A stretch of DNA of 64,000 nt, taken from assembly GCA_020724555.1 (NCBI GenBank), contig DYGT01000007.1, forward strand, positions 15,258 through 79,257, written 5' to 3'. Under the pieces are notes generated by a model that saw nothing but the letters and a program-made list of their open reading frames with translations, was not told the origin of the DNA and did no database searches. The translations under genes were made by a program, and so were the position numbers. Every line of letters starts with the position of its first letter. Positions within the stretch are counted from its first letter, which is position 1. The DNA is from Candidatus Microgenomatus sp. Lineage in GTDB: Bacteria > Patescibacteriota > Microgenomatia > UBA8517. Below are positions 6,874-63,047 of the stretch, one piece after another.

Positions 6874-6908
6874 TCGTTTCATTCCTGTGTATAGTTTGCG
6901 AGCTTACA

Positions 6909-6928: not shown

Positions 6929-6946
6929 CTTTGCTTATTATACCAG

Positions 6947-36789: not shown

Positions 36790-36920
36790 TTATCCCTTTT
36801 GTGTTAAAATTGAGCCTGCAAGAGGAATATTGCCCGGTTGGTGTTCCGAGCTTCCGACCTAAAGTCGAGAACTCGTGAATGCTCGATTGCGAAGCAGATC
36901 GGCATAATGGTAGTAAAAAA

Positions 36921-37196
36921 ATGGCATTTTGTTATGTAATCAAATGTTCAGATAAAAGTTACTATGTAGGATCAACTAAAGATATTGTCGGTCGTTTTAA
37001 AAATCACAAGCTTGGTAAAGTAAGATATACAAAGTCCAGAAGTCCTTTGAAATTAATTTTTGTAAAAGAGTTTGAGACATATAGTGAGGCTTATAATTTC
37101 GAACAAAGAGTAAAATCATGGAAAAAGAGGAAATCTATAGAGAATATGCTTAATAAGTCTGATAATGTAGTATCCAAATATTGCCCGGTGGTGTAA
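36921..37196 (+). CDS. GIY-YIG nuclease-superfamily protein (UPF0213-like); its last 5 codons are encoded by a tRNA-Gln 5' fragment
   Basis: CYVIKCSDKSYYVGSTKDIVGRFKNH...YTKSR motif set; track ORF starts at 36879 but the conserved family start is MAFCYV at 36921. Confidence 0.7.
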   Translation: MAFCYVIKCSDKSYYVGSTKDIVGRFKNHKLGKVRYTKSRSPLKLIFVKEFETYSEAYNFEQRVKSWKKRKSIENMLNKSDNVVSKYCPVV

Positions 37197-37201
37197 TGGT
37201 A
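37177..37201 (+). repeat. 24-nt direct repeat: 4 nt upstream plus the first 20 nt of tRNA-Gln (second copy 37254-37278); a diverged third copy lies at 36826-36844
   Basis: atattgcccggtggtgtaatggta appears twice exactly; aatattgcccggttggtgt at 36826. Confidence 0.7.
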
Positions 37202-37204
37202 AGC

Positions 37205-37237
37205 AAAGCTTGGCCTTCGGCTAAAGCAAAGCTTGGC
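37205..37237 (+). repeat. 33-nt element aaagcttggccttcggctaaagcaaagcttggc, copy A (identical copy B at 52431-52463)
   Basis: Exact 33/33 match between the two loci; internal 13-nt direct repeat gcaaagcttggcc and a hairpin with a TTCG loop. Confidence 0.9.
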
Positions 37238-37258
37238 CATTACACCCTATTACTATAT

Positions 37259-37332
37259 TGCCCGGTGGTGTAATGGTAGCACGTCGCGCTCTGGACGCGG
37301 AAATTGGGGTTCAAATCCCTGCCGGGCAGCCA
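37259..37332 (+). tRNA. tRNA-Gln (anticodon CTG)
   Basis: Acceptor TGCCCGG/CCGGGCA with U1:A72 and G73, D-arm GTGT-AATGGTA-GCAC, anticodon loop CTCTGGA, T-loop TTCAAAT, CCA encoded. Confidence 0.8.
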
Positions 37333-37584
37333 AGACGGGCACCCCCTCAAGATCGAGGTCTCTATTCGGCTTGAGGAGGCTTGCCGAAACGCTCATTTTT
37401 CTTCAAATCATTCGAACCGTAAAAATAGCTTCAACGCTTCTATATTAAAGCTCTGGTTCGAGTAAAACCAAATCAGCTAGGGTAATTTGGAATAAACACA
37501 TTTATTTTAAAGAACTATTTGATTTCTCGGAAGTCAAGAAGATATAGATATTCATTATTTCCTCTTTAGTTGAATATCGCGTAA

Positions 37585-37610
37585 TACTGTTATACAATTG
37601 TATAACAGTA
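37585..37610. promoter_or_regulatory. 26-bp perfect palindrome TACTGTTATACAA|TTGTATAACAGTA overlapping the TTG start of the first island gene
   Basis: Exact dyad read from the sequence; spans the start codon at 37598. Confidence 0.4.
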
Positions 37611-39025
37611 TGTGCAGAAATATTCCGAATGTTGACTTTAAATCCACTTCCGATGGTTGGAGGGGAAAATTGGCTGACAATTTTACCTTTGCCAATGTTG
37701 AAGAAATCTCCAAAGCAATAGCTCAATTCCTCATCAAAGATAAAAAACAGAACAAAATAGTTGTCGGTTATGACACTCGATTTATGAGTAAAGAATTTGC
37801 TTATTTCATTGCAGCTGTGATGCAAGAGTGTGGAATTGATGTAAGTATTATTTCATCGCCATCTCCCACCCCTTACCTGACATTTGCCGTAAATGAATAC
37901 AGTTTTCCATTGGGAATAAATGTTACCGCTTCTCACAATCCACCGTATGATGACGGGATAAAAATTCGCATGGGCTACGGAGGCACACCTCCAAAGGATG
38001 TAATCGAGAAAATTGAGTCATATTTAAAAAATGGATATGAAGTAAAAGCAAAAATAAAAGGTAAAGTTAAGATAATCAATCCAAGAAAAAAATATGTAGC
38101 TCGAATTAGGAAATTTATAAATTTGGACTCTTTTGATAAAAGCGCTCCAAGAGTGTTAATAGATACAATGCACGGCACAACAAAAGGTTTCTTAGAAGAT
38201 ATTTTTGGCAATACAAAAGTAAAGATAGACCATCTTCATGAAGATTTTGATCCATATTTTGGAGGCATTAATCCCGAACCCAAATTTGAGTCAACAAGCG
38301 AATTACAACAAATTGTTAAGACTGGAGCTTACGATTTGGGGATAGCTCATGATGGAGACGGAGACCGTATAGTGGCTGTATTGCCCTCAGTCGGTTATTT
38401 GTCACCGCATGATGTAGCTAGCTTAATGGTTTTATATTTAGTAAAGCACAAACAGCTTCAAGGTACTGTTTTTGGGAGTTCTACTCTTGGTCGTCGCGTA
38501 GAAAGAATCTGTGAGAAACTTGGAATACAGTATGAAACAATGCCGGTTGGTTTCAAAAACGCAACGGACAAAATGCTAAAAGGAGAAATTTTGTTGGCGG
38601 CAGAAGAAAACGGAGGGCTTGGTTTCGGATTCTACTTACCGGAAAGGGATACCACTCTTGCAGCAGCGTTGCTACTAGAAGCTCAAGTATCCGTTGGAGT
38701 TAAAAAATTACTGGATGAGGTTGAAGAAATTGCTGGTAAATCTGGATTTTGTAGGTACAACTATTCACCCAAAGTAGATAGAAGGCGTTTGTTCAATAGT
38801 ATTTTAGAACATAGAAACGATTTTGATTTTAGAGAAATAGAGTCAATGAACGACTCTGACGGGATAAAGATTACTTATGATAACGGAGATTGGTTAAGTA
38901 TACGCTATTCTGGGACAGAAGAGATATTAAGAATTTATTGCGAATCAAATAGCCGACTAAAGGCAACAAAAATCAAAGACTTTGCAATTAAGCAGATCAA
39001 GTTACTAGAAAAGAAACAGAAATGA
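37598..39025 (+). CDS. Phosphohexomutase (phosphomannomutase/phosphoglucomutase family)
   Basis: GWRG N-terminus, active-site TASHNP, Mg-loop DGDGDR. Confidence 0.85.
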   Translation: MYNSMCRNIPNVDFKSTSDGWRGKLADNFTFANVEEISKAIAQFLIKDKKQNKIVVGYDTRFMSKEFAYFIAAVMQECGIDVSIISSPSPTPYLTFAVNEYSFPLGINVTASHNPPYDDGIKIRMGYGGTPPKDVIEKIESYLKNGYEVKAKIKGKVKIINPRKKYVARIRKFINLDSFDKSAPRVLIDTMHGTTKGFLEDIFGNTKVKIDHLHEDFDPYFGGINPEPKFESTSELQQIVKTGAYDLGIAHDGDGDRIVAVLPSVGYLSPHDVASLMVLYLVKHKQLQGTVFGSSTLGRRVERICEKLGIQYETMPVGFKNATDKMLKGEILLAAEENGGLGFGFYLPERDTTLAAALLLEAQVSVGVKKLLDEVEEIAGKSGFCRYNYSPKVDRRRLFNSILEHRNDFDFREIESMNDSDGIKITYDNGDWLSIRYSGTEEILRIYCESNSRLKATKIKDFAIKQIKLLEKKQK

Positions 39026-40173
39026 ATAATTACTGGAAATTTGCAACACCGAAATATTTAACTGCAGGAATGAGCTTAGTCTCAAATCTTACTGACTATA
39101 TTAACGATTTTGGGATAAAGAAGCCCTTTATTGTTATTGATCCCAAACTAAAAAAAGAAAGCAAAGCCATAAAAGCTTTAATAAAACAACTTGAATCTCT
39201 TGATATATTTATCTTTGAAGACTTCTCAACAAACCCAACAACTGATCAGGTGAGTAAATCAGTTAGTTTTTATCTTAAATTCAAACCTGATAGTGTAATT
39301 GCTATTGGTGGCGGTAGTGCAATCGATTTAGCAAAAGCTACTACTCTGGTCGCCCTGAATGGAGGAAACATTGAGGAATATTTGGCGGGGAGAAAAGGGA
39401 ACCGCGAATTTCCGCCCTTTATAGCAATTCCCTCCACATGCGGAACCGGCTCGGAAGCCAGTCCTTACGCAGTGATACTAGATCCCAAAACGAAAAAGAA
39501 AAGAGGGATTGAAGATTCCAATTTTTTACCAAAATTGGTTGTTCTTGATCCAAGACTATTGGATTCACTAGATACCACCATTCTTGCCGCGACAGCAATT
39601 GATGCTCTTGCACATATTCTTGAATCATTCATTTCTAAAAAGGCAAATGAAATTACACGAAGTTCAGCAAGAGGATTAATGATCGGATTAAAAAAATATA
39701 TTGAAGATGCTTCTGTGAAACGTGATTTAAATGCCGGCGCAGCAATGCTAAATGCCTCTTTTTCCTCTCGCCTCCTTTACCCTCGCACGGGCTTAACTAT
39801 TGCCCACGCTCTTTCTCATCCGTTGGGAGCATACACAAATATCCATCACGGCATGGCGGTTAGTTTCTTTTTACCAGTCTCGTTTAAAGTTAACCAGGAA
39901 TACTGTAAGGATTCGCTGAAAGAGGCAGTAAATCTGTTGGGATTTACTAACTTAGAACAATTTGATCAGTGGTTCAAAGACTTTTGTGATAAGGCCGGAA
40001 TCACAAGTTATCTGTGTGACTACTTGAAAGATGAAGATCTCCCTATTGAAATCTTAGCGAAAGACGCGCTTGAAAGTAGCAATATCCCTTCTAATCCTAA
40101 ACCAGTTAACAAGGAAGACTTAATTGGTGTTATTAATGATTCGCTAGCCTATTGGAGGATATATGGGAACTAA
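39022..40173 (+). CDS. Iron-containing alcohol dehydrogenase family oxidoreductase
   Basis: GGGSAIDLAKA NAD-binding motif and His-rich metal site (HALSHPLG, HHGMA). Confidence 0.8.
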   Translation: MNNYWKFATPKYLTAGMSLVSNLTDYINDFGIKKPFIVIDPKLKKESKAIKALIKQLESLDIFIFEDFSTNPTTDQVSKSVSFYLKFKPDSVIAIGGGSAIDLAKATTLVALNGGNIEEYLAGRKGNREFPPFIAIPSTCGTGSEASPYAVILDPKTKKKRGIEDSNFLPKLVVLDPRLLDSLDTTILAATAIDALAHILESFISKKANEITRSSARGLMIGLKKYIEDASVKRDLNAGAAMLNASFSSRLLYPRTGLTIAHALSHPLGAYTNIHHGMAVSFFLPVSFKVNQEYCKDSLKEAVNLLGFTNLEQFDQWFKDFCDKAGITSYLCDYLKDEDLPIEILAKDALESSNIPSNPKPVNKEDLIGVINDSLAYWRIYGN

Positions 40174-40999
40174 AGAAACTGGAGAAACTACTCCGATTGA
40201 AGACTTAATATTGTCTAGGTTTAATGAGGTTAATGTAGAAGCTATTAATATCATTCGACAATGGAGAGCTGGACAGAAGAGAGTTTTGGATAAAGTTAAT
40301 GCAAACGGGGCACATGATGTCGTTACAGATGTAGATATAACCATCGAATCCCTTACCAGACAAACATTTGCTGATACAATTCCTGTATTCGGTGAAGAGG
40401 GCTTTAATAATGACGCTTACGTTGTTGAAAAACCGCTATATATCGTTGTCGACCCTATAGATGGGACAAAAGAATTCGCAAAAGGCAGTAATGAATGGAG
40501 TATATCCCTTTGCGCTGTCCAGAATGGGGTACCAATTGTCGCATCTATTTTTATGCCAGATAAAGGAGAATGTTTTACTGCAATTAAAAACAAAGGGGTA
40601 AGGTTAAATGGTTTACCTTTAAAATCGCAGCAAGCCAATAATGGCAAAATTGCTGTAAGCCCGCGACAAATTAAAGACCCAGTGTTTGGTGAATCTATAA
40701 GAAGGACTGGATTGGTCGCTGCCGAAGTTTCTGCCTTAACACCGAAAATATGCGCAATACTTCGTGGAGAGGTGCAATCTGCGGTCTACTTTCCTCAGGA
40801 CGGGCAATCCGCTGCTTTATGGGACTATGCCGCAGGTGTATTGCTCGTCCAGGAGTTTGGTGGAAGGATAAGCTCGCTATGTGGTGCTGATCTTCCTTTC
40901 AGGGGAGCAGATATTATTCACAAAAAAGGATGGCTAGCTACTCGAGAAATTGATCATACGCAATTGTTAGCTTGTCTTAACAGCCTAGGTGAACTATAA
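40163..40999 (+). CDS. Inositol monophosphatase / FIG-family phosphatase
   Basis: DPIDGT and WDxAAG motifs. Confidence 0.8.
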   Translation: MGTKETGETTPIEDLILSRFNEVNVEAINIIRQWRAGQKRVLDKVNANGAHDVVTDVDITIESLTRQTFADTIPVFGEEGFNNDAYVVEKPLYIVVDPIDGTKEFAKGSNEWSISLCAVQNGVPIVASIFMPDKGECFTAIKNKGVRLNGLPLKSQQANNGKIAVSPRQIKDPVFGESIRRTGLVAAEVSALTPKICAILRGEVQSAVYFPQDGQSAALWDYAAGVLLVQEFGGRISSLCGADLPFRGADIIHKKGWLATREIDHTQLLACLNSLGEL

Positions 41000-41007
41000 T
41001 AACTCAA

Positions 41008-41541
41008 ATGACAAAAGTACAAAAATGGCAAGAGCTTTCGAGAGAAATAGCCTTTCAAAAATATAGTCGCAAAATTGAAAAAGTAATGTTTAAACTTCCC
41101 GATGGAAAAGAAACTGACTTTTATATCAAAAGAGAAGGTCCAGCAGCTGGAGTTCTGGCAATAACAAAAAATAAACAAGTAATTCTTGTAAAGCAATATC
41201 GACCTGGACCGGAAGAAGTTCTCCTTGAGCTGCCCGGCGGCTATGTTGATCCCAATGAAAAACCAGAAAAGACAATGGAGCGTGAATTACTTGAAGAAAC
41301 AGGATATAAAGGCAAGGTAAAACTTGTCACCACCTGTTTTGACGATGCCTACTCTACAATGAACAGATACTGCTTTGTCGCAACTGATTGTGAGAAAGTC
41401 AGTGAACCCCAGACAGGTGAGCATGAATTTGTAGAACTTGAACTCCTAACTCTAGAAGATTTCAGAAAGCTTTTGCGTAGCGGCAAGATGACCGATGTTG
41501 AGGTGGGATACCTCGGTCTTGATTTTCTAAACCTTCTGTAA
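41008..41541 (+). CDS. Nudix hydrolase (ADP-ribose pyrophosphatase-like)
   Basis: Nudix box GGYVDPNEKPEKTMERELLEETG. Confidence 0.8.
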   Translation: MTKVQKWQELSREIAFQKYSRKIEKVMFKLPDGKETDFYIKREGPAAGVLAITKNKQVILVKQYRPGPEEVLLELPGGYVDPNEKPEKTMERELLEETGYKGKVKLVTTCFDDAYSTMNRYCFVATDCEKVSEPQTGEHEFVELELLTLEDFRKLLRSGKMTDVEVGYLGLDFLNLL

Positions 41542-41566
41542 TAACAGAATAAATCGCTCCAATAAT

Positions 41567-42127
41567 ATGAAAATATTTTTTCATTCCTCAATCTTTGCCA
41601 AAGAGCATTATGAAGAAGCCTACCTTTTAATTGTTAAAATTTGCAAAGACCATGGTCATACAGTATTTGCTGATCATATGCTCAAACGCGATTACCATGA
41701 TACGGACAAGTATACTAGAGAACAGCACCAGCAGGATTTTCAAAGATTGACGAAACAAATCAAGGAATGTGATGTTGTTATTGTTGAAGGAACTGCCCCC
41801 AGCATTGGAACTGGCCATTACATGACTATTGCATTAGGTTATCTGAAGCCAGTTTTAGTGCTTCACCAAAATGAACCGCATGGAGTGTTGGTTGGTGACC
41901 CAAACAGGCTATTGTCCTTAAGGAGGTATTCAATGAATGACAAAAAAGGGTTGGAGAAGACAATCAAAGATTTTCTGAGAAACGCCGAAAAGAAAACTTT
42001 GAAAAATAGATTCAACTTAATGCTAGACGATGAGATGATAGACTTTCTTGAAAGATACTCCAAACAAGATAAGGCCAGTAAGGCTGATGTAATCAGGCGA
42101 TTAATACTGGAGAGAATGAACAAGTAA
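41567..42127 (+). CDS. Nucleoside 2-deoxyribosyltransferase-like domain fused to a C-terminal ribbon-helix-helix (CopG/Arc-like) domain
   Basis: KIFFHSSIF...CDVVIVEGTAPSIGTGHYMTIALGYLKPVLVL resembles the NDT-like Rossmannoid fold; C-terminal RFNLMLDDEMIDFLERY...ADVIRRLILERM has the RHH beta-alpha-alpha pattern. Confidence 0.45.
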   Translation: MKIFFHSSIFAKEHYEEAYLLIVKICKDHGHTVFADHMLKRDYHDTDKYTREQHQQDFQRLTKQIKECDVVIVEGTAPSIGTGHYMTIALGYLKPVLVLHQNEPHGVLVGDPNRLLSLRRYSMNDKKGLEKTIKDFLRNAEKKTLKNRFNLMLDDEMIDFLERYSKQDKASKADVIRRLILERMNK

Positions 42128-42129
42128 AA

Positions 42130-43023
42130 TTAATCTTTCCTCCCGAATTGCCTTAGTCTTTCTGGAGTACCAAGATCTGGAGCAGGCTGACCGATATCAA
42201 ATGTCCCCACTTGGACACCTTTATCTATAAGCCAAGGGATAAACTGTCTATACATGTCAACGACTCTAAGATCGCCACTTTCTTGTAAAAATTTTTGATA
42301 TGTAAGCAAATAAAATTCCCGATTGGCGATAGCCACACCCACGCTTGTACTTGGAATTAGTCCGTCAGAAAACAAGCTGATGTCTATATTGGGATTGTTT
42401 TCAAAGGTATGAACAACATTTCGGCTAAGGGGATCAACTAATATTCTCCCAGAGTTTTGGGCATTTTCTCCAGGAGATGTTGTTACAACCCAAGTAATAG
42501 ATGTATCTTGAGCCTTGTGGTTTTCAAGTATCTGAGGTAACAAACTGAAGGGGAATAATGTATCTGCTGGTACAATCGCTACAGTTGAGTATTCGGATAG
42601 ATTAAGAGCGTTAAATACAGCTCCCGCTGTCCCTAACGGTTGCTCTTCTCTGATAAATCTGACTGTGTTTTGATGATTGGCAGTGGTATGATCTTCTATA
42701 AGTGAACCTTGGGCTTCTGGGTCAGAACTAGTTAACAAAACAACATCTTTTATTCCTGTTGCAAAAATACCATATAGAGCATTGTCCAACATCGGTAATC
42801 TGCCATCACCTGAGTCTATTGGCACTAATGGCTTGGGCAAAGTTTGCAAGTCTGGGTCGTCAGACTTTTTTAGTCTAGAGCCCTTTCCTCCTGCCAAGAT
42901 AAGCACTCCTACTCCAATCTTTTGAGCCTCTAATTCAGGCGCAATTCGTTTTTCGCCAAATTCCAGAGATAGAGGTGTCTCAATTTCTTTATTTAACATG
43001 CTGACTTTGATTCCGTTATACAA
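42130..43023 (-). CDS. Sugar-phosphate nucleotidyltransferase (GlmU/RmlA-like NTP_transferase)
   Basis: LILAGGKGSRL nucleotide-binding motif. Confidence 0.8.
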   Translation of the reverse strand: MYNGIKVSMLNKEIETPLSLEFGEKRIAPELEAQKIGVGVLILAGGKGSRLKKSDDPDLQTLPKPLVPIDSGDGRLPMLDNALYGIFATGIKDVVLLTSSDPEAQGSLIEDHTTANHQNTVRFIREEQPLGTAGAVFNALNLSEYSTVAIVPADTLFPFSLLPQILENHKAQDTSITWVVTTSPGENAQNSGRILVDPLSRNVVHTFENNPNIDISLFSDGLIPSTSVGVAIANREFYLLTYQKFLQESGDLRVVDMYRQFIPWLIDKGVQVGTFDIGQPAPDLGTPERLRQFGRKD

Positions 43024-43159
43024 CTACATAACATTCTGATATTCTATAACAACTGCTTGAATTCAGCAATATTATGTGATTTTTAAGAGGTAAACGATAA
43101 AAAAATCTCAGGTAAAACATTCAGATAATTATCCGAAGCCGAAGTGGTACAATAGCTTC

Positions 43160-43537
43160 ATGTCAGATATCAAAGAACTCACTAAGAAAATTAACCAATG
43201 GGTAGCAGAGCGTGGATGGGAGAAGGCACAAAAACCCAAAGATTTAGCAATCTCGCTATCGCTTGAGGCAGCAGAAGTGCTTGAACACTTCCAGTGGAAG
43301 AATGAAAGAAAAGTTGCTAAGCATATTAAAGAAAACAAAGAGGAACTGGCAGATGAGCTTGCGGATGTGGCAATTTATCTCTTGAAACTTGCGGACAAAA
43401 CTAAAATTGATTTGAGAACTGCAGTTGAAAACAAATTGATTAAAGCTTCAAAGAAATATCCTGTAGAAGTGGTTAAGGGAAACTCGAAAGAGTATTACAA
43501 TTTGAAGAAGCAAGCTCGGGCCCAGCGACCATTATAA
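43160..43537 (+). CDS. MazG-like nucleotide pyrophosphohydrolase (small all-alpha type)
   Basis: EExxE...ELADV acidic motifs typical of MazG/HisE. Confidence 0.65.
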   Translation: MSDIKELTKKINQWVAERGWEKAQKPKDLAISLSLEAAEVLEHFQWKNERKVAKHIKENKEELADELADVAIYLLKLADKTKIDLRTAVENKLIKASKKYPVEVVKGNSKEYYNLKKQARAQRPL

Positions 43538-43550
43538 TTTCAACTATCCC

Positions 43551-43958
43551 TTATACCAGCTCAAAGACTTTCTTTTCATCTTCATGCTTCATAATTTCTT
43601 TTACTTTTTCAAGTCTCATCCAATCGTAACCAATACTTTCTTCATTCAAAGTAATAGGCGTATCTAAATCCCTGATTTTTAATGCTACGAAATGAATCTC
43701 TGTTAGTCTATGTTTGCCTTCAAATTCAATTTTGTAATTTAGGTTTTTAGTTTCTTCTAGATATCCAATTCCAAACTCTTCTGATACTTCTCTTTTTGCT
43801 GCATCTTCTAAATTTTCATTGGGTTCAATATCTCCAAAGATAATGGTCCACTCATCCTCATATCCGTTAAAAGGCTTGTTATGCCGAAGTAAGAATCTTC
43901 TGTTCCCTTCCGTGTCAATTGTCCAAACTATAACTGCAACTTTTTGGTGTTTACTCAT
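43551..43958 (-). CDS. Nudix hydrolase
   Basis: Nudix box GDIEPNENLEDAAKREVSEEFG. Confidence 0.75.
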   Translation of the reverse strand: MSKHQKVAVIVWTIDTEGNRRFLLRHNKPFNGYEDEWTIIFGDIEPNENLEDAAKREVSEEFGIGYLEETKNLNYKIEFEGKHRLTEIHFVALKIRDLDTPITLNEESIGYDWMRLEKVKEIMKHEDEKKVFELV

Positions 43959-44452
43959 GTTTCTAGGATTTTATTGTAAAACATATATTTTGCTCTCTGG
44001 TAGTCTATAAAACTCTTGCCATTAAATTTAAGTTTTAGCTCCTCATATTCTTTTAACAACTCTTTGTTTGATTTGAGTATGTCATAGACTTTAATTTGTC
44101 TGTCTGGTGGCTCAGTCAAATAGAGTTCTACTGGATATCCTTTCTCAGTAAATGACCATTCGATAAAAGTTTCATGAATATTTTTAGGTTTGCCAAAGAG
44201 TTTTTCTAAAATCGGTAAGTGTTCACCAAATTTACTAGATTCTGATAACACATAAATATCAATATCATTTTGTCCTGCAATTCCAAGCGCTGTTGCCCCC
44301 ATAAATAACACACGAGCATCAGGCAATTTGTCTTTGATTCTTTTGACTATTAAATCTCCAGTTTCTTTTGCTCTTGGATCAAATGCCGAAATGCTGACCT
44401 TCCTTGTCGGATCAATTTTGGCTAAATAATTTTCCTCATCTTGCGTTAACAT
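43955..44452 (-). CDS. GrpB-family nucleotidyltransferase-fold protein
   Basis: MGATALGIAGQNDIDIYV motif typical of GrpB (UPF0157). Confidence 0.6.
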   Translation of the reverse strand: MLTQDEENYLAKIDPTRKVSISAFDPRAKETGDLIVKRIKDKLPDARVLFMGATALGIAGQNDIDIYVLSESSKFGEHLPILEKLFGKPKNIHETFIEWSFTEKGYPVELYLTEPPDRQIKVYDILKSNKELLKEYEELKLKFNGKSFIDYQRAKYMFYNKILET

Positions 44453-44490
44453 GTCTTGATTATAGCCTGCCTTAGGTCAATAATACAGAA

Positions 44491-45246: not shown

Positions 45247-45272
45247 CTATCTATGCTAAACTAGCCTCATCT

Positions 45273-45734
45273 ATGGAAAATAAAATTAAAATCAGACTCA
45301 GATTAGTAATTATTAAGGAGGATAAGCTTCTGGCTTACTATGATTCAATGGATGATTATTATTTTTATATTGGGGGCAAGCTAGAGTTTAGGGAAACTAT
45401 TGAAGATGGTTGGAAGCGGGAGATTAAGGAGGAGTTGGGCAATGATGTTGAATTTACTTTTAAGAAAATACTCTATGTCAGAGATTTTATTCTTAAAGAG
45501 AAAAATGAACACAGTCTTGAGCTATTTATCTTGGGAGATATTAATAAGTTTATGGAAATAGACGAGCGCCCTGACTCAGAGTTTGACGGCAAGAAATGGC
45601 CAAAATGGCTAGATCTAAATAATTTACCAGATAATCTTTATCCTAAACCTTTGAGTAAAAAGCTTCTTACGGATTACAAAGCAGGATTCCCAAGAGAGGG
45701 AGAATATATAGGAAGGATGGATTCAAATGACTGA
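45273..45734 (+). CDS. Nudix-like hydrolase
   Basis: Nudix box GKLEFRETIEDGWKREIKEELG fits Gx5Ex7REUxEExGU. Confidence 0.6.
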   Translation: MENKIKIRLRLVIIKEDKLLAYYDSMDDYYFYIGGKLEFRETIEDGWKREIKEELGNDVEFTFKKILYVRDFILKEKNEHSLELFILGDINKFMEIDERPDSEFDGKKWPKWLDLNNLPDNLYPKPLSKKLLTDYKAGFPREGEYIGRMDSND

Positions 45735-46317
45735 AGAGAAAGAACTACTCACAATTTTATCGAAAGTAGAGTATGAGAAGGTACTTGCTCGTCTAGTTAA
45801 AAAGTTTGGAGATCCTGAAATTGTCAAAAGGCTTTCGCTTCAATCAACAGATTACAGATGGGCGGATGTAGATACAAGAATCAGGATTACCAATGGAAAA
45901 GCTGAGATTATTCAAAAAGTTGGTGATTGGAAGAAACAAAACCGCCAGGAAATCACAATTCCTCTGCCTTCTGACCCCAAAATAATTTTTGACATGTACA
46001 AGATTTTTATGAATGCGATGCGAGATGAAAAGGTACTAACTCCAATAATGCAATACGAGAATAAGTTATTTAAAACCAAAAATTTTGAAATCAAATTAAC
46101 TTACCAGTTTGGCAAAAAAGATGCATACAATTGTGAAATTGAAGTTTTTGACCATGCCCTTGAGCCAGATGATTTGGCTAAAAAGTATAATATTCCAATT
46201 CACTTACCAGAACAAACCCAAGATTTTTGGAAAAATTGGAATGAAATTGTTAATTTATCAGCTACAGAATTATCGGATGATGAGTTGTTAAAAATAATTT
46301 CTAAATATATTAACTAA
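45727..46317 (+). CDS. Hypothetical protein (possible CYTH-like fold)
   Basis: Weak resemblance (IRITNG...EIEVF) to the triphosphate-tunnel family; low confidence. Confidence 0.25.
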   Translation: MTEEKELLTILSKVEYEKVLARLVKKFGDPEIVKRLSLQSTDYRWADVDTRIRITNGKAEIIQKVGDWKKQNRQEITIPLPSDPKIIFDMYKIFMNAMRDEKVLTPIMQYENKLFKTKNFEIKLTYQFGKKDAYNCEIEVFDHALEPDDLAKKYNIPIHLPEQTQDFWKNWNEIVNLSATELSDDELLKIISKYIN

Positions 46318-46318
46318 T

Positions 46319-46753
46319 ATGACTGAAAAACAGCACGATTTTGTTTTTGAGACTAAGTATTGGGAAGTATATCTCAACCCTGATCAGTATTACTTGGGTC
46401 GTTGTGTTGTTTTTGCAAAAAGAGATGTAGGAGCAATGAGTGAGTTAACTCGCGAAGAATGGCTTGATTTTGCAGAACTATCTCGAAAGATTGAAAAAGG
46501 GTTTAAACAAAAGTTTGGCGCAACAATGTTTAATTGGACTTGTCTTATGAATAATGCTTATCAAGAAGAAAATCCCCACCCTTGGGTGCATTGGCATATG
46601 AGACCAAGATATAAAAATCCAGTTGAATTTGCGGGCCAGAAATTTGAAGACAAAGAATTTGGGCATCATTATGCTAGGCAAACCGAACAAACAGTCTCGC
46701 CTGAAGTTTTTACTAAAATTGTTGAAGAAATAGAGAGCTTTTTAGAAAAATAA
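46319..46753 (+). CDS. HIT-like (histidine triad) nucleotide hydrolase/transferase
   Basis: His triad HPWVHWHMRP (HxHxHxx). Confidence 0.6.
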   Translation: MTEKQHDFVFETKYWEVYLNPDQYYLGRCVVFAKRDVGAMSELTREEWLDFAELSRKIEKGFKQKFGATMFNWTCLMNNAYQEENPHPWVHWHMRPRYKNPVEFAGQKFEDKEFGHHYARQTEQTVSPEVFTKIVEEIESFLEK

Positions 46754-46755
46754 CT

Positions 46756-47334
46756 ATGTACACAGAATTTGAAGCAACATTCACAGATATCAGTAAAGAT
46801 GAAGCAAGAGAAAAACTTAAAAAAGCTGGGGCAAAGTTAGTTCGTGAGGAGTATCTTCAAAAGCGTTGTGTTTTTAATCTTCCAAAAAGTCATGAAATAA
46901 AAGGAGGATGGCTAAGAGTGAGAGATGAAGGAGACAAAATCACAATGAGCCTCAAAATTGTTGATGGAGATAAAATTGAAAATCAAAAAGAAACACAACT
47001 TGTAATTGATAATTTTGAAAATGCAGTAAATCTTTTTGAAAGCATTGGATGTATCAAAAAAGCATATCAAGAAAGCAAACGAGAACTTTGGAAGTTAAAG
47101 GATGTCGAAATAACAATTGATGAATTGCCTTTCCTTGAGCCGTTTGTTGAAATTGAAGGCAAATCTGAAGAGGAAGTAAAAGAAGTAGCTCAGAAACTTG
47201 GACTTGATTATTCAAAAGCAAAATTCTGTGCTGTTGACACACTTTACTCTGAAAAATATGGCATTTCTGAAGACAGAATAAACAACCACACCCCAGAAAT
47301 ATTATTTGAATCAGAAAATCCATTTATTAAATGA
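46756..47334 (+). CDS. CYTH-domain protein (triphosphate tunnel metalloenzyme)
   Basis: N-terminal EFEATF (ExExK-like), WLRVRDEG, C-terminal ExE (FVEIEGK). Confidence 0.55.
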   Translation: MYTEFEATFTDISKDEAREKLKKAGAKLVREEYLQKRCVFNLPKSHEIKGGWLRVRDEGDKITMSLKIVDGDKIENQKETQLVIDNFENAVNLFESIGCIKKAYQESKRELWKLKDVEITIDELPFLEPFVEIEGKSEEEVKEVAQKLGLDYSKAKFCAVDTLYSEKYGISEDRINNHTPEILFESENPFIK

Positions 47335-48338
47335 AAACTCTAAAAATTGCAGTTGGAACTACATCCGAACAGAAGATTGGATATCTAAAAGAAGTTTTGG
47401 ATGAAATTGGGATAGGTGCTGAAATTGTCCCAACGGATGTCAAAAGTGGAGTTTCCGATCAGCCAATCACTGAAGAAGAAACTCAAACGGGCTCACTTAA
47501 CCGTGCTAAGGCTGCATTTGAAAGTGTTGAAGATGTCGATTTTGGGATTGGGATAGAAGTCGGATATCACAAAAATAAGAATGAGGATTTCGAGATGTTT
47601 TGCTGCACTTCAATCTTTGGCAAAGGTGAGGCTATAGCGAGTTGTTTTTCGACTAGGTTCTTGCTTCCTGATTTTCACCAACAGATATTAAAGGAAAATA
47701 AATATCTTGGAGAATATGTGCGTAAATACAAAGAAGAGGTTGACGAGCCAGTTATAAACTATACAAGAGAATTGGTCCGTGGCAGAAAACCGTTAATTGT
47801 TGAAGCAACAAGAAATGTCTTACTTCAATTTCTAGAACTACATGCAACAGTTAGCCATTTACTAAAGTCTGATAGCTTAGGTTATAGAGATAAATCACTT
47901 GGAGTAATAATAGACAAAGACAAAAATTTTCTCCTAGTCCAACTACATAGCTATGGAGAAAATGACTGGAATTTTCCTGGTGGCGGAATCGAAGACGGAG
48001 AAACTCCTGAAGAAGCCTTATTAAGAGAATTATCTGAAGAGCTTGGAAGTAAAAAATTCAAAATCCTTGCAAAAAGTGAAAAACAAATAGAGTATGATTG
48101 GCCTGATTTCATTATCGTCAAAGATATCAAAAAAAGAAACGGCAAAACTTTTAGAGGTCAAAGACAGCATATATTCTTGGTTGAATTTAGCGGAGGCAAA
48201 GATGAGATTAATCCTGACCCAGGTGAGATACGACATACTAAATGGGTGAAAAAAGATGAGTTAAAAGACCACCTCAATTTCCCCAGCCAGAAGGAAATAT
48301 TTGATGAGGTGATTAAGGAGTTGCTTACTGAATTATGA
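47331..48338 (+). CDS. Fusion protein: N-terminal YjjX/Ham1-like non-canonical NTP pyrophosphatase, C-terminal Nudix domain
   Basis: N-terminal KIAVGTTSEQKIGYLKEV...SGVSDQP (NTPase_I-T/Maf-Ham1 type); C-terminal Nudix box PGGGIEDGETPEEALLRELSEELG. Confidence 0.6.
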   Translation: MKTLKIAVGTTSEQKIGYLKEVLDEIGIGAEIVPTDVKSGVSDQPITEEETQTGSLNRAKAAFESVEDVDFGIGIEVGYHKNKNEDFEMFCCTSIFGKGEAIASCFSTRFLLPDFHQQILKENKYLGEYVRKYKEEVDEPVINYTRELVRGRKPLIVEATRNVLLQFLELHATVSHLLKSDSLGYRDKSLGVIIDKDKNFLLVQLHSYGENDWNFPGGGIEDGETPEEALLRELSEELGSKKFKILAKSEKQIEYDWPDFIIVKDIKKRNGKTFRGQRQHIFLVEFSGGKDEINPDPGEIRHTKWVKKDELKDHLNFPSQKEIFDEVIKELLTEL

Positions 48339-48377
48339 ATATTTATTTAAAAGGCAATTATAAATCATTCATCAGAC

Positions 48378-49082
48378 TTGATGTTTTCAAAACTAAAAAG
48401 AAAACAAATAAAGTGTATCTTAATGTGCATGGGTTATATGCCATGTCTGGAGACAGAGGTTCTAAGTCAAAGTTTTTTGGGAAACAGGACACTGGAGAAA
48501 AATATAGCCAATGTAGTCCAGTTTTCCTCCTCTCGTGACTGGAATATCTTCCCTCCAGATGGGACTTATTCAAAGCAACAAGAGTCATTCAAGGGTAAAA
48601 CTTTTGTGCAAGAAGCTCAAGATTTGAGAGATGCAATTGATTTGATTCTTGACCAAAGTAAATATCTTTTTGGTATCGAGAAAGGAAAGCTGAGATTTTA
48701 TATAGTAGCTAATTCAATCGGTGGAACCGTTACTACAACTTTAAAAGATAAGTTTAAATATATTGATAAAATCGTGTTGGCTGGATTTGGAACCAGACCG
48801 TCAGATTCCACAAAACCAATTCTTTCAACCTGTCCAACTGAAAAAGAAATTCTTGATTCGGCTGCAAAATTTAACGGAGAACTACTTTTTCTCCAAGGAA
48901 GCAAGGATGACGTGGTGCCCATTGAAGCGCAGGATAAATTGTTTGCAAGTTATAAGCATGCCAAAAAAGAAAAAGTGATTGTTGAAGGAGCAAATCACAA
49001 CTTCTCAAAGTTAAACGGAAAAGACAAAAGATTGGTTCAGAAATTGTATGTTGATTTCATTCTTAAATTTTTGGTCAAATGA
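48378..49082 (+). CDS. Alpha/beta-fold hydrolase
   Basis: Nucleophile elbow ANSIGG (GxSxG); catalytic Asp/His region (DDVVP, ANHNF). Confidence 0.55.
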   Translation: MMFSKLKRKQIKCILMCMGYMPCLETEVLSQSFLGNRTLEKNIANVVQFSSSRDWNIFPPDGTYSKQQESFKGKTFVQEAQDLRDAIDLILDQSKYLFGIEKGKLRFYIVANSIGGTVTTTLKDKFKYIDKIVLAGFGTRPSDSTKPILSTCPTEKEILDSAAKFNGELLFLQGSKDDVVPIEAQDKLFASYKHAKKEKVIVEGANHNFSKLNGKDKRLVQKLYVDFILKFLVK

Positions 49083-49597
49083 AATATCATCAAGACACAT
49101 ATTTATACAAAGGCACTAAGGTTACAAATACCTGGATTAAAACTGACAATCTTGAGAATTACTCTCCAATAACTCAGGTCTACGGAATCGTTTTTAACGA
49201 TAAAAATGAAGTCATAATTTGTCGTGAATCTAATAGCGGTAGCTGGATAATTCCAGGAGGACACCCAGAGGAAGGTGAATCTATTGAGCAAACACTAAAG
49301 CGAGAGCTTCAAGAAGAAGTGGATGTAGAGATCGAAGATATCAAACCATTAGGTGTCCAAAAGGTTACGTTTCCGGATGATGTTAATTCTGATAAAGCCA
49401 TATATCAAGTCAGATGTATTGCAAAACTCAAAAAACTGAATTCTCAAACTCCTGATCCTGCAAATGGGAATACTTGGGAGAGAAAATTTATTCCTGCTTC
49501 TGAAATTACAAACTATGTTAAGTGGGGAAAAACCGGAGAGGTAATGTTTAAGGATGCTGTTGAAGTTTATTCTTCTGGCTTGAAACCAATGATTTGA
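49079..49597 (+). CDS. Nudix hydrolase
   Basis: Nudix box GGHPEEGESIEQTLKRELQEEVDVE. Confidence 0.75.
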   Translation: MKYHQDTYLYKGTKVTNTWIKTDNLENYSPITQVYGIVFNDKNEVIICRESNSGSWIIPGGHPEEGESIEQTLKRELQEEVDVEIEDIKPLGVQKVTFPDDVNSDKAIYQVRCIAKLKKLNSQTPDPANGNTWERKFIPASEITNYVKWGKTGEVMFKDAVEVYSSGLKPMI

Positions 49598-49826
49598 TAC
49601 CCTTTTTCTTCTATCTCCTCTTTGCTCCAAAATGGTAAATCACGAGTTTTGACAATATATGTTACTTTCTTCTCAAGAGTTCTGCCTGTGTAATCTTTTT
49701 TCTCTGGATCCCACTCAAAACATCTCCTTCGTTACATTCAAAATCATTAAGCCTAACTTCGAAATTTTTGTCACCTTTTAATATTGCCTCAAAGTATGGT
49801 GGTTGAACTTTCTTTTCTATTTTCAT
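49568..49826 (-). pseudogene. DUF3850 (ASCH-like) gene interrupted by a frameshift near 49715
   Basis: MKIEKKVQPPYFEAILKGDKNFEVRLND...GDVL in one frame; the conserved continuation EWDPEKKDYTGRTLEKKVTYIVKTRDLPF...GYQIIGFKPEE* is in another frame. Confidence 0.5.
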
Positions 49827-49850
49827 AGCTTTACCGCTATTATACCGAAT

Positions 49851-50351
49851 ATGAGGCAAAAGCGGTATCAAGAGGTAAGGTTTTATCTATTTGCAAATTC
49901 ATACTCAGGCAAAGCTATAGTCACTTTTATTAGAGAAAAATATAAGAGGAAGAGATTAAATTATGTAGTGAAACGCTTATCATCAGTCTTGGGTTTTAAC
50001 TACAAACAAACGAAAAGACTCATTATTTTTGAGCTGATTCCAGACTGTCCTTATAAAAGATTGCCAAATAAATTGAAAATCTATCTTGAAATAGAAAAAG
50101 AATTAACAACTCTTGTACAGGAAAAATTAGATGAATACTCAACTGCACTGGAAGATTACCAGAGGCAATTATTAGCGCCCGCTATTGAGAGGGCAGCTGG
50201 TAATCTCATGATAGAAATTGAAGATAGAGAATTTGATAAAACGCTAGAAATACAAATAAGAAAATATAGCCATATTTATTATAGGACTGCATACAAGTAC
50301 AAATTAACAACTTTGAGGGTTGTACCATTCATACTTAGGTTAATATCCTAA
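49851..50351 (+). CDS. Hypothetical protein (start at MRQKRY)
   Basis: ORF only; the 5' end of the track ORF overlaps the DUF3850 gene. Confidence 0.3.
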   Translation: MRQKRYQEVRFYLFANSYSGKAIVTFIREKYKRKRLNYVVKRLSSVLGFNYKQTKRLIIFELIPDCPYKRLPNKLKIYLEIEKELTTLVQEKLDEYSTALEDYQRQLLAPAIERAAGNLMIEIEDREFDKTLEIQIRKYSHIYYRTAYKYKLTTLRVVPFILRLIS

Positions 50352-50680
50352 GTATATCAAAATATATCAACAACTTTTGAGACATTCCCTTTTTATACTG
50401 TCTCATTTGTCTCGTTTAGCCTCACTCGTGATACACTACTTATGGGTCTGAAAGGTTCAAGACCGACATGCTCAGCAAAACAGGGCGCAAGGTGACCGAG
50501 ATACTTCAAAAAGCCCAATCTTTCGTTCAAAACAGCTATTTTTATTTGAAACATTCGGACGGTACGCTCGACATTCGGATATTTACCTTGAAATTGGCCT
50601 TTCTGACTACCTTGTGGTGTTTAATTTTTCTCCAAATTTATTCTAGATGTCAAGTACCCCTTTTACTACACACTCTGTCT

Positions 50681-51559
50681 CTAAACGGATAACTGTCTAA
50701 ATTGGGTTGGTGGCATTTTTAGTTTGGTGTGTATTCTTTGGTGGTTGTAGTAGTGGATTACTTGATGGATAGCCTCCACTAGTTCTCCAATTTTGTATTA
50801 AATCTCTCAAACTCCAGTCCCAGATCTGTCTTGAAATTGTTGTAAAAAGATTCTTGATATCCATTCTCCCAAGGACTACCTTTTTTACTCATACTGATTT
50901 TGATACCCAGCTTGTTTGTTAGTTGAGTGTATTCTTTTGATTTGTATTCACTTCCTTGGTCTGTATGAACAATTTGCGGTTTGCCTTGAGTGATAACAGC
51001 CTCAAGTAAGGCTTCAATTACCAGTTCTTTGGTGTGTCTGATTGAAATATTCCAGCCTACAATTTCTCTGGTATAAATATCCATAAATCTGGCTAAATAT
51101 ATAGTTTTACTGTTCCCACCTTAAATATGTAAAGTCACCAACATAAACAATGTTTGGTCCAATAGGGCAAGTGCCCTTAATCATGTTTGAATATCCAGCA
51201 TCAGGTTTTCTCAAATCTCTCCTTTTGCTCCACCTGGCTTTCCTTTTGTATGGCTTAATAGAGTAAAGCTTCATCACCCTTCTCACTCTTTTCTTGCCAA
51301 CAGGATGTTGAGGAGTGGATAAAGCAATAGCAATCCTTCTGTGGCCATAGCTTGGGTTTAATTCCAAGACCTGTAGTATCTGTTCTTTCAGGGATTCATC
51401 CTTGGTTTTAAGTTTGTTTGAGTGTAGATATAGTGATTCTCTGGATACCCCAAATAAATTTGAAATTAGACTTTTGGAGACATTTTTAACTTTCCCTTGG
51501 ATTAGCTCAACCAGATATCTTTTTTTTTGTTTTCTCCAGCTCAAAAGTGAGCACTCCAA
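50681..51559 (-). pseudogene. IS3 transposase OrfB (rve integrase core), disrupted by two frameshifts beyond the programmed one
   Basis: NIVYVGDFTYLRWEQ* then KTIYLARFMDIYTREIVGW in the +1 frame (break near 51084-51107); HTDQGSEY core; C-terminal IHYYNHQRIHTKL again in another frame (break near 50781). Confidence 0.7.
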
Positions 51560-51764
51560 TGATTTCTTTGAGCTGTTGATTTTCTTTTTTGAGCCTCACG
51601 TGTTCCATCCAGCTAACTTGCTTGGCTACTCCACCCCTTAACCAATTGTAAATTGTTTTTCTACTGACCCCATACTTTTCAGATAAACTGGAGTCTGGCT
51701 CACCTGTTTTAACTTTACCCAAAATCTCCTTTTTAACTTCTTTTGCGACTGTCTTTCTTTGCAC
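51507..51764 (-). CDS. IS3 transposase OrfA (HTH)
   Basis: HTH_Tnp_1 pattern, leucine zipper, followed by an AAAAAAAAA -1 frameshift window. Confidence 0.8.
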   Translation of the reverse strand: MQRKTVAKEVKKEILGKVKTGEPDSSLSEKYGVSRKTIYNWLRGGVAKQVSWMEHVRLKKENQQLKEIIGVLTFELEKTKKKISG

Positions 51765-51934
51765 AGTTTCACCTCCTTTTGTGTTTCAAGTATATAAGCA
51801 AGCTTGTTACTTGCGTAATAGAAACTGTGTGTATTTTAAGGGGTACCTGTCAATGCATATTTTACACCCTTTTATCATATTAAATCTCTTGACGGAATAG
51901 TCGCCTTTATCATGTGAGCGTAAAACTCCATGCG

Positions 51935-51954
51935 CCTGCCTGCCGGCAGGCAGG
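51935..51954. repeat. 20-bp perfect GC-rich palindrome CCTGCCTGCC|GGCAGGCAGG
   Basis: Exact dyad; 83 bp beyond the IS right end and ~140 bp upstream of blaI. Confidence 0.6.
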
Positions 51955-52082
51955 TAAGCACGGGGATGTAAGCTCAAAACAATCTCGCTTAAACGAGTGT
52001 TTCAAAATACCATCTGGCGTAAGCCGGTGGTAGTTTGTCTTAAAGGAAGGTTGATTGTTGGCTGCAAAACTCCTAGAATCTC

Positions 52083-52101
52083 TGTAGAGTATATGACTAC
52101 A
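52083..52101. promoter_or_regulatory. Imperfect dyad TGTAGagtATATgaCTACA overlapping the blaI-like start codon (possible autoregulatory operator)
   Basis: TGTAG/CTACA arms around an ATAT centre; ATG at 52093. Confidence 0.3.
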
Positions 52102-52419
52102 TACAATTTGGGTCCACTTGAACAGGAAATAATGAACTGCGTTTGGCGTAGTAAGGAGGTTTCGGTGAAAGATGTACATTCTTGTCTCAAAAAGTCTCGC
52201 AAGATCGCCTATACCACTGTAATGACAATAATGACAAGGCTGACAAAAAAGGGGTTTTTAACAAGAAAAAAGGTGGGTAAAGCCTATTTATATACCCCAA
52301 AGAATACGAAAGAAAAAGTGGCCAAAGGAATGGTCAAAAGAATCATTGATTCATTGGTTAATCAATATGGCACTGATGCAGTTACGGCATTTACTGATGA
52401 GCTTGAAAAAAGAAGATAA
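52093..52419 (+). CDS. BlaI/MecI/CopY-family transcriptional repressor (start at MTTYNL)
   Basis: Winged-helix N-terminus typical of penicillinase-repressor family proteins, ~110 aa; no C-terminal Cys cluster. Confidence 0.7.
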   Translation: MTTYNLGPLEQEIMNCVWRSKEVSVKDVHSCLKKSRKIAYTTVMTIMTRLTKKGFLTRKKVGKAYLYTPKNTKEKVAKGMVKRIIDSLVNQYGTDAVTAFTDELEKRR

Positions 52420-52430
52420 TTTATATAACC

Positions 52431-52463
52431 AAAGCTTGGCCTTCGGCTAAAGCAAAGCTTGGC
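52431..52463 (+). repeat. 33-nt element, copy B (identical to 37205-37237), in the blaI/M56 intergenic spacer
   Basis: Exact 33/33 match. Confidence 0.9.
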
Positions 52464-52466
52464 AAA

Positions 52467-53345: not shown

Positions 53346-53408
53346 TCAATGAAATTTCTTCTAATTAGTTATTGACAGATAAACAGATTTTTTACTACAC
53401 TTTGTAGT

Positions 53409-54173: not shown

Positions 54174-54181
54174 CATGGACA

Positions 54182-54913: not shown

Positions 54914-54960
54914 TTACATATTTCGTTTTTTTACTACATATTGTAGTATATATTTAAATT

Positions 54961-58016: not shown

Positions 58017-58019
58017 CTT

Positions 58020-59243: not shown

Positions 59244-59246
59244 AAG

Positions 59247-59945: not shown

Positions 59946-59947
59946 AT

Positions 59948-61231: not shown

Positions 61232-61286
61232 AGAGCGAAGTTTACAAAGCGAATCTGAAAATTAGCTGAAGAATAAGAAGTTGATT

Positions 61287-62330: not shown

Positions 62331-62333
62331 AAA

Positions 62334-63032: not shown

Positions 63033-63047
63033 TTAAATTATACAGTA

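Follow-up and report, generated by a model that had tools for sequence, protein, structure and literature searches.

Two copies of a probable dispersed hairpin repeat and a separate relic of foreign DNA beside tRNA-Gln in Candidatus Microgenomatus sp.

Results

Two identical 33-nt sequences near tRNA-Gln

We analyzed a 64,000-nucleotide (nt) stretch of DNA from Candidatus Microgenomatus sp. (contig DYGT01000007.1, positions 15,258 to 79,257; the whole stretch is called the window), in which a first-pass annotation had noticed the same 33-nt sequence, AAAGCTTGGCCTTCGGCTAAAGCAAAGCTTGGC, next to a tRNA-Gln gene and, about 15 kb away, between a BlaI-like repressor gene and its M56 protease partner. 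The 33-mer was confirmed to occur exactly twice in the window, at 37205-37237 (copy A) and 52431-52463 (copy B), both on the plus strand; no further match with up to three mismatches was found there, and 100 shuffles gave 0. The identity of the two copies even extended to 38 nt (37 of 38 positions, 37200-37237 versus 52426-52463), and a Hamming scan of approximately 83 kb of the window's genome returned 2 copies. The features at the two sites were as follows.

37178-37201, plus strand: copy of tRNA-Gln positions -3 to +21 (T at 37258 being +1), an exact 24-nt match to 37255-37278; left arm of the tRNA-Gln leader
37200-37237, plus strand: copy A of the hairpin repeat, 1.6 units of a 23-nt module, with the 36-nt hairpin at 37200-37235
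37237-37246, plus strand: CCATTACACC, the reverse complement of GGTGTAATGG in the D-arm region of tRNA-Gln; right arm of the leader
37259-37332, plus strand: intact tRNA-Gln(CTG), whose 3' end is the left junction of a foreign block
51997-55602, plus strand: blaI-M56-dsbA-dsbD_TM-DUF3105 unit, a conserved block in relatives, containing copy B
52426-52463, plus strand: copy B of the hairpin repeat, in the blaI-M56 spacer, with a TAACC variant as its left end

As had been described, copy A lay between a 5' fragment of tRNA-Gln, which proved to be part of the 24-nt exact direct repeat, and the intact gene; it formed the apex of the tRNA-Gln leader hairpin, 22 nt 5' of the tRNA. The position given for copy B was also correct: it filled most of the 47-nt spacer between the blaI stop (52419) and the M56 start (52467), lying 6 nt past the stop codon and 3 nt ahead of the ATG. 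The junction of copy A with the tRNA fragment was recovered in three independent k=31 assemblies (L019-L021), in which every contig ended within copy A, since a repeat of at least 31 nt would break such assemblies; a 52-kb k=31 contig showed no break before copy A. The window matched the Joint Genome Institute (JGI) contig Ga0246236_1000076, and copy B was identical in this source contig.

A modular hairpin repeat family

Alignment of the contexts of the copies defined a 36-nt hairpin unit, TAAGC-NNN-GCTT-GGCCTTCGGCTA-AAGC-NNN-GCTTG, bounded by two 12-nt direct repeats, AAGCNNNGCTTG. The TAAGC and GCTTG ends were conserved although they lay outside the search pattern, and the NNN triplets varied (AAA, GGA, AGA, GAA, and ATA/TAA). 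The direct repeat that had been seen inside the 33-mer was real and set the tandem period of 23 nt, and the tip of the hairpin that had been proposed there was predicted to be a GGCC-UUC-GGCU stem-loop. Unit numbers of 0, 1, 1.6, 2 to 4, and 5.6 were observed. The same locus in two near-identical genomes contained 4.2 units in L001 and 5.6 in L006, and at two loci the 1.6 units of the window corresponded to collapsed forms, which lacked the inner hairpin, in the relative L035. The 12-nt terminal direct repeats accounted for the arrays, the differences in unit number at one locus, and the collapsed forms; replication slippage or unequal exchange between them would add or remove 23-nt modules. 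The predicted folding energy of the 36-mer was -11.9 kcal/mol for the plus strand and -10.6 kcal/mol for the minus strand, and arrays were predicted to fold into one long nested hairpin. A diverged copy, L009:3700-3745, retained the inner stem with different bases.

When one genome per species was scanned for the 22-nt core, it was found in only one other genome, that of Ca. Woesebacteria GW2011_GWC1_42_9, as an array of 4.2 units. A metagenome scan, in which an exact match to the 20-nt core was required, returned 15 contigs from at least ten projects, and viral contigs scanned for the core contained no copy. Among these 16 loci (one Woesebacteria genome and 15 metagenome contigs), the core was present at 13 other distinct places, all of them intergenic. 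Every copy of the family was intergenic, and 12 of the 14 scorable copies lay after a co-oriented gene, the TAA of TAAGC often doubling as the stop codon of that gene. Operon-internal copies were found between the genes for L29 and S17, between two pilin genes, and between blaI and M56, and another lay just 5' of an enolase gene; the L29-S17 junction was occupied in L010 and empty in the window's genome. With its usual location, on the sense strand in a leader or just past a stop codon, the repeat would be expected to appear in transcripts as an RNA hairpin. The copy number was low, with one locus on a 707-kb contig. The hosts were widely spread: no named Woesebacteria sequence was more than 64% identical to the window's GluRS, the ribosomal proteins of the L010 host were 46-75% identical to those of the window, and the G+C content of the loci ranged from 0.31 to 0.45. 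The first-pass annotation had weighed two readings, an integrated island with the 33-mers as its ends and a dispersed intergenic repeat family that framed the region by chance. Searching other genomes for the repeat, as it had suggested, revealed scattered copies in unrelated intergenic places, the outcome that the annotation had itself named as refuting the island; this supported the second reading and counted against the first.

Searches of Rfam at gathering and permissive thresholds assigned the element to no family: only tRNAs passed, and the element scored as hairpin noise at 12-24 bits, far under the gathering thresholds. An intrinsic terminator was rejected, as no site was predicted in 36800-37650, the flanks 3' of the element were not T-rich, and the next start codon was only 3-16 nt away. 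Avoidance of a restriction site was also dropped (AAGCTT, 44 observed versus 47 expected in the window), and possible collapsed copies, TAAGCAAGCTTG at 51795 and TGTAAGCTC motifs, were no different from chance. At two unrelated loci, L008 676-690 and L015 approximately 2582-2595 (in the repeat's plus orientation), the element had a common right flank, GCTTG|CAAACT[A/T]TGTTTAT, each with a partial extra unit, and flanking DNA may sometimes travel with the element. In an atypical copy at L002 900-1080, the inner hairpin was flanked by another reiterated motif, GTAAGCAATTGGTAAGA, with about four occurrences; this copy may belong to a related repeat family.

Both repeat sites in relatives

In four relatives, synteny on the left side of the window was kept from SecDF through AspRS and GluRS to the DUF4258 gene pair, up to approximately 36.8 kb, and none of the four contained the GIY-YIG gene that precedes the tRNA-Gln leader, the repeat, or the genes of the 15-kb segment. 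In L025 the corresponding place was occupied by a homologous tRNA-Gln with unrelated genes after it, and in L027 and L029 synteny was resumed only at the Cu-ATPase gene (55.9 kb of the window). L035 and L036 shared proteins of 56-88% identity with the window, including BlaI (81%), DsbA (88%), and DUF3105 (76%) in L035. The leader of tRNA-Gln(CUG) in L035, TGCTGGATGGTGTAATG | CAAAGCAAAGCTTGG | CCATTACAC, had the architecture of the copy A site with the repeat collapsed. The blaI-M56 spacer of L035 and L036 could be aligned to that of the window and, in the place of copy B, contained only GCC[T/A]AGCTTTGC, a collapsed form of 12 nt. A further L035 copy, which was full and inverted and had three mismatches, separated the BlaI operator from the start codon of blaI. 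The tRNA-Gln and blaI genes of L035 were 5.3 kb apart, and the intervening genes were unrelated to those of the window.

Because both sites were occupied in L035, they are old and were not made by the arrival of the present block. Because blaI-M56-dsbA-dsbD-DUF3105 is a conserved unit, copy B is operon-internal and blaI is not island cargo; the island reading, as the first-pass annotation had noted, would place blaI in the island and its partner protease outside. The comparison of the tRNA-Gln and blaI-M56 loci with those of relatives, which had been proposed as a check, gave a divided answer: the 15-kb segment was indeed absent, as expected of an island, and members of the repeat family were nonetheless present at both sites in L035, which was not expected of attachment (att) ends.

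Palindromes of the BlaI/MecI operator type, TACTACA-N3-4-TGTAGTA, were present at 53388-53419 and 54927-54958, directly 5' of the dsbA-like and DUF3105 genes, and another such palindrome was located 5' of blaI, at approximately 52060-52085. These motifs suggest that the BlaI/M56 pair may control a disulfide-bond module rather than a beta-lactamase.

The foreign block beside tRNA-Gln

The genes between the 33-mers were assigned by Pfam to a sugar-phosphate group (PGM/PMM, Fe-ADH, and IMPase), to hydrolases (five or six NUDIX proteins and MazG-like, HIT, CYTH, and NTPase_I-T proteins), and to a deoxyribosyltransferase-like gene, three nucleotidyltransferases, and IS3 fragments; the accessory content described for this segment was thereby borne out. 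The tetranucleotide correlation with the 1-33 kb core was 0.86 for 37238-52430 and 0.95-0.96 for both flanks, so that the composition comparison also agreed with foreign origin. In a Markov log-likelihood profile the composition switched at approximately 37.2-37.5 kb and returned at approximately 51.8-52.0 kb. The left switch coincided with copy A; on the right, the region of 52-53.5 kb was neutral at 1-kb resolution. The genes of the block were absent from the relatives L022, L025, L027, L029, and L035. The features of the block and its right side were as follows.

37333-50453: foreign block of approximately 13.1 kb without a recombinase gene, defined by composition and absence from relatives
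50454-50610, plus strand: decayed T-arm and 3' end of tRNA-Gln, GGTTCAAGACCGACATGCTCAGCAAAACA, with approximately 130 nt of the original downstream flank; right junction, an attR-like relic
50779-51764, minus strand: remnants of an IS3-family transposase (rve, HTH_21, and HTH_Tnp) between the relic junction and the blaI operon

The sequence at 50454-50610 was identical at 99 of 155 positions to the 3' end of tRNA-Gln and its flank in L035, with an alignment score of 76 versus 21 +/- 3.7 for shuffles (0 of 500 shuffles). It also weakly matched the sequence after the window's own tRNA-Gln (28 of 34 at 37387-37422; 0 of 500 shuffles). A search for a 3' fragment of tRNA-Gln of the classical attR kind, with up to three mismatches, had found none, and the remnant emerged only through the comparison with L035. 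This tRNA-derived junction placed the insert at approximately 37.33-50.45 kb, with both 33-mers outside it. The block was followed by the original flank, the IS3 debris, and the blaI unit, with copy B about 2 kb beyond the relic; island-like composition continued past the relic junction to approximately 51.8 kb.

The composition switch and the relic junction fit a block that is the fixed relic of an integration at the 3' end of the tRNA. The earlier proposal of accessory DNA inserted by tRNA-Gln was therefore supported by both observations, and its extent was corrected from 37.2-52.46 kb to approximately 37.33-50.45 kb, with the 33-mers no longer its ends. Independently of the repeats, a site-specific integrase, since lost, probably carried the foreign block of approximately 13.1 kb into the 3' end of tRNA-Gln(CUG). 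Such an insertion would have left the intact tRNA on the left and, on the right, a 3' copy of the tRNA, now decayed, with the original flank, after which the IS3 debris lies.

tRNA leaders with a copy of the tRNA's own 5' end

The copy of the tRNA-Gln 5' end, TTGCCCGGTGGTGTAATGGTA at 37181-37201 within the 24-nt direct repeat, had a direct-repeat score of 46 (0 of 300 shuffles), and the right arm was an inverted match of 10/10 (0 of 300 shuffles). Because copy A was flanked by the tRNA 5' copy and the D-arm reverse complement, the region was predicted to form a long hairpin at 37187-37248; the folding energy of 37177-37260 was -31.8 kcal/mol (z -3.95). The right half of this hairpin was identical in the window and L035 at 23 of 23 positions, though the adjoining spacer could not be aligned. 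The layout, in the order of promoter, copy of the first 18-21 nt of the tRNA, apical loop or repeat, inverted complement of the D-arm, short spacer, and tRNA, was found at four places: tRNA-Gln(CUG) in the window and in L035, tRNA-Thr(GGU) in L006, and tRNA-Pro(GGG) in the window. Three of the four leaders followed a TGGTATAAT extended -10 box, and each leader fragment matched the acceptor sequence of its own tRNA. The layout was absent from four other tRNA loci. Two further features of the window belong here.

6874-6950, minus strand: leader of tRNA-Pro(GGG), with the same layout and without a full repeat unit; the tRNA-Pro gene is at 6802-6873
36879-37196, plus strand: GIY-YIG nuclease-family open reading frame (ORF) just 5' of the tRNA-Gln leader, which relatives lack at this place

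The tRNA-Pro leader consisted of the TGGTATAAT promoter, the 5'-end copy ACGGGGTATAGTTTTAAAG, the loop TGTAAGCTCGC (which includes GTAAGC), the inverted AAACTATAC, the spacer, and the tRNA. At L001 324-487 (equivalent to L003 approximately 6946-7109), a tRNA-Thr(GGU) gene was split by four repeat units directly after the D-loop GGTA, and no intact tRNA-Thr(GGU) was found nearby. The near-identical L006 contained the fragment, 5.6 units, and an intact tRNA-Thr. The split gene in L001 represents either an allele that is disrupted or an insertion tolerated in the D-loop. The fusion in L001 and L003 is best explained if an L006-like allele underwent a deletion from its D-arm-like module (..GGCTAAAGC..) to its true D-arm (..GGTAGAGC..). 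Four origins of the leader layout were weighed, namely tandem-inversion duplication, quasi-palindrome correction, long target duplication, and homeologous exchange between module and D-arm; none covered the whole architecture, and only the last explained a specific case, that of L001 from an L006-like state.

The GIY-YIG ORF of the window entered the tRNA-Gln 5'-end copy and stopped at a TAA within it. A small GIY-YIG ORF in L001 (1775-2032) overlapped tRNA-Trp (2023-2096) by 10 nt. Small GIY-YIG ORFs with stop codons in tRNA-derived sequence suggest selfish nuclease genes targeted to tRNA flanks. In L003, a sub-threshold match to 6S RNA (5364-5518; 29.2 bits, gathering threshold 46.4, E 3e-4) was located between a TGGTATAAT promoter and tRNA-Thr(UGU)-tRNA-Tyr; Woesebacteria may have a divergent 6S RNA that is transcribed together with tRNAs.

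Other observations at the right end of the window

A second compositionally distinct stretch, 55900-64000 (G+C content 0.44-0.45; tetranucleotide correlation with the rest of the window 0.88-0.90), contained the Cu-ATPase gene, which is syntenic in relatives, a MacB-type efflux system, and a two-component system. Within the Cu-ATPase gene, 12 clustered differences between the window and Ga0246236_1000076 were found at 57708-57752, with spacings that were mostly multiples of three, as for third-codon-position changes; the remaining approximately 20.8 kb of the overlap (L017) was identical. The cluster is either a strain-level recombination patch or a consensus artefact.

Discussion

We consider it probable that the 33-mers belong to a modular hairpin repeat dispersed among Woesebacteria-like Patescibacteria and that the approximately 13.1-kb block is a separate relic insert at tRNA-Gln. 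Copies A and B would occupy two old sites, the leader of tRNA-Gln(CUG) and the blaI-M56 spacer. The repeat could be a non-autonomous selfish or semi-domesticated element reliant on a trans-acting factor, a dependence that would explain its near-invariant sequence across hosts with ribosomal-protein identities of only 46-75%. The insertion event beside it is old, because no integrase is left and the tRNA part of the relic has decayed.

Several results weigh against this interpretation. The mobility of the repeat rests on presence or absence and scattering, because no mobilising enzyme was found and the non-tRNA copies had no target-site duplication; duplication or inversion of the flanks was significant solely at the two tRNA sites. 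Diverged copies were under-sampled by a scan that demanded an exact 20-mer, and L035 and L009 each hold one that it missed. The covariation test of the hairpin gave 0 compensatory pairs in nine distinct copies and was uninformative because the copies were too uniform. As regards the insert, only about 17 of 29 positions, as counted from the alignment, were shared by the tRNA part of the relic and the 3' end of the intact tRNA in the window. Pfam and PHROGs searches of all ORFs in 37.3-52.4 kb detected no integrase and only IS3 transposase fragments, in agreement with the first-pass annotation, and the search for an integrase in the unannotated ORFs at 45727-46317, 49803-50351, and 50468-50692 was also negative. 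Both copies lie near a variable region, and with 2 copies in approximately 83 kb chance does not fully account for this proximity; we attribute it to old neighbouring sites, which are about 5 kb apart in L035. The near-identity of the repeat in distant hosts and its retention at orthologous sites fit a functional motif at least as well as a selfish element.

The repeat might accordingly be read as a functional cis element kept by selection, an explanation that we regard as unlikely. It could act as a DNA site for a dimeric protein, consisting of two AAGC-N3-GCTT palindromes 23 bp apart, or as an RNA hairpin for processing or stability, a signal in polycistronic mRNAs and pre-tRNA leaders. Constancy argues for it, since across hosts with ribosomal-protein identity of 46-75% and G+C content of 0.31-0.45 the 36-mer changed only at NNN, and it was kept at two orthologous sites despite a randomised neighbouring spacer. 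The variable triplets could be the uncontacted centre of a palindrome or a purine-rich 3x3 internal loop of an RNA helix, the copies have a strand bias relative to genes (12 of 14), and the plus-strand RNA is slightly more stable through G.U pairs. However, occupancy was polymorphic even at the universally conserved L29-S17 junction, the contexts were functionally unrelated, and unit number ranged from 0 to 5.6 with no apparent constraint. The very low copy number per genome, the lack of covariation and of an Rfam family, and the inverted copy in L035 also speak against selection for such a function.

A more specific idea, in which the self-copy leader acts jointly with the hairpin module as a functional pre-tRNA device in Woesebacteria-like bacteria, appears quite doubtful. 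In such a device the anti-D-arm could pair either with the decoy 5' copy or with the nascent tRNA, a conserved factor bound to the invariant D-arm-like 23-nt module at the apex could gate tRNA folding or RNase P processing, and the intergenic copies in mRNAs would be further targets of the same factor. If true, the maturation of tRNA and mRNA in the candidate phyla radiation (CPR) would be subject to a so far undescribed level of control.

It is very unlikely that the 33-mers are recombination sites bracketing a mobile or exchangeable 15.2-kb unit, whether as attL and attR recombining in the Campbell manner through the hairpin or as homology anchors for swaps. Deletion would leave a junction at 37199|52464 reading ...GTAATGGTAAGC..GCTTGGCAAAATG, and the excised circle would be closed at 52425|37238 as ...TATATAACC..GCTTGGCCATTACACC. 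The two copies are identical, directly oriented, and the sole two in approximately 83 kb; the DNA between them is compositionally foreign, with its left switch at copy A and tRNA-Gln; and the interval between the occupied sites of L035 has other genes, like a replaceable slot. With a length of 33-38 nt, the copies are close to the minimum needed for RecA-dependent exchange. Against this, many genomes have single copies of the repeat in operon spacers without adjoining foreign DNA, and L035, which is without the block, has both sites occupied. Excision would break the conserved blaI-M56 unit and take out tRNA-Gln, the composition reverts at approximately 51.8 kb, the tRNA relic junction at 50.45 kb lies 2 kb to the left of copy B, and no recombinase gene is present. 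The combination of tRNA copy and inverted arm also recurs at tRNA-Thr and tRNA-Pro without an island. The att interpretation that had been put forward for the 33-mers was abandoned on these grounds.

A chimeric or synthetic assembly or library artefact, which could be suspected from the common cloning-site motifs in the 33-mer (AAGCTT and GGCC) and its identity in unrelated datasets, is dismissed as extremely improbable, because the tRNA-fragment junction was present in four independent datasets (JGI and three Sequence Read Archive runs), copies lie within long contigs at exact stop- and start-codon boundaries in consistent orientation, diverged and collapsed versions occupy orthologous sites, and AAGCTT is as frequent as expected (44 versus 47).

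For this locus, the model of an island with the repeats as its mobility sites and blaI as cargo is replaced by that of an acquired 13-kb relic, without an integrase, at the 3' end of tRNA-Gln. A search of the literature for the sequence, for REP-like repeats of the CPR, and for pre-tRNA leaders of Patescibacteria found no relevant description. The repeat family of these uncultivated Patescibacteria combines low copy number, constancy across hosts, clean expansion and collapse in 23-nt steps, and recurrent self-copy pre-tRNA leaders. Should this constancy be due to recognition by a protein of the host or of a mobile element, the family could give access to RNA processing or DNA transposition in a lineage without genetics. 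In practice, the repeat breaks k=31 assemblies and can yield apparently interrupted tRNA genes, such as tRNA-Thr of L001.

Comparison with known systems was made separately for the block and the repeat. The approximately 13.1-kb block fits the model of tRNA-targeted genomic islands: its left boundary is the 3' end of an intact tRNA-Gln, its composition is foreign, relatives lack it, and on the right a partial tRNA 3' copy precedes the original flank. It differs from such islands in that no integrase or excisionase survives and the right tRNA copy is heavily decayed; the 33-mers are not in the junctions. The repeat, for its part, shares with the attC sites of integrons a hairpin-forming imperfect palindrome straight after the stop codon of a co-oriented ORF, whereas attC sites are 55-140 nt long and variable in sequence, with R''/L''-L'/R' boxes, a GTTRRRY core, and an IntI integrase, none of which applies here. 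Correia elements (NEMIS) of Neisseria and elements like miniature inverted-repeat transposable elements (MITEs), such as ERIC, RUP, and the Rickettsia palindromic elements, are likewise small, non-autonomous, intergenic hairpin repeats transcribed with their neighbours, and Rickettsia palindromic elements can also land in RNA genes. These known elements, however, measure 100-150 nt or more and carry both terminal inverted repeats and target-site duplications (TA in Correia elements), whereas the present repeat is 36 nt long, modular, and without duplication at non-tRNA sites. The repetitive extragenic palindromes (REPs) and bacterial interspersed mosaic elements (BIMEs) of Proteobacteria, which are mobilised by Y1 transposases (RAYTs), are similar in being extragenic imperfect palindromes of about 35 nt, often past stop codons within operons, and in being non-coding, co-transcribed, and sometimes clustered. 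No Y1 transposase was found among the annotated ORFs of 33-53 kb. REPs number in the hundreds per genome, are specific to a species, and have a conserved 5' GTAG; in contrast, the present repeat is of very low copy number and near-invariant across deeply diverged hosts, its consensus begins with TAAGC and has no GTAG, and it expands head-to-tail in exact 23-nt modules. The family resembles REP- or MITE-like elements, and differs from them in its copy number, its constancy across hosts, its modularity, and its association with tRNA leaders.

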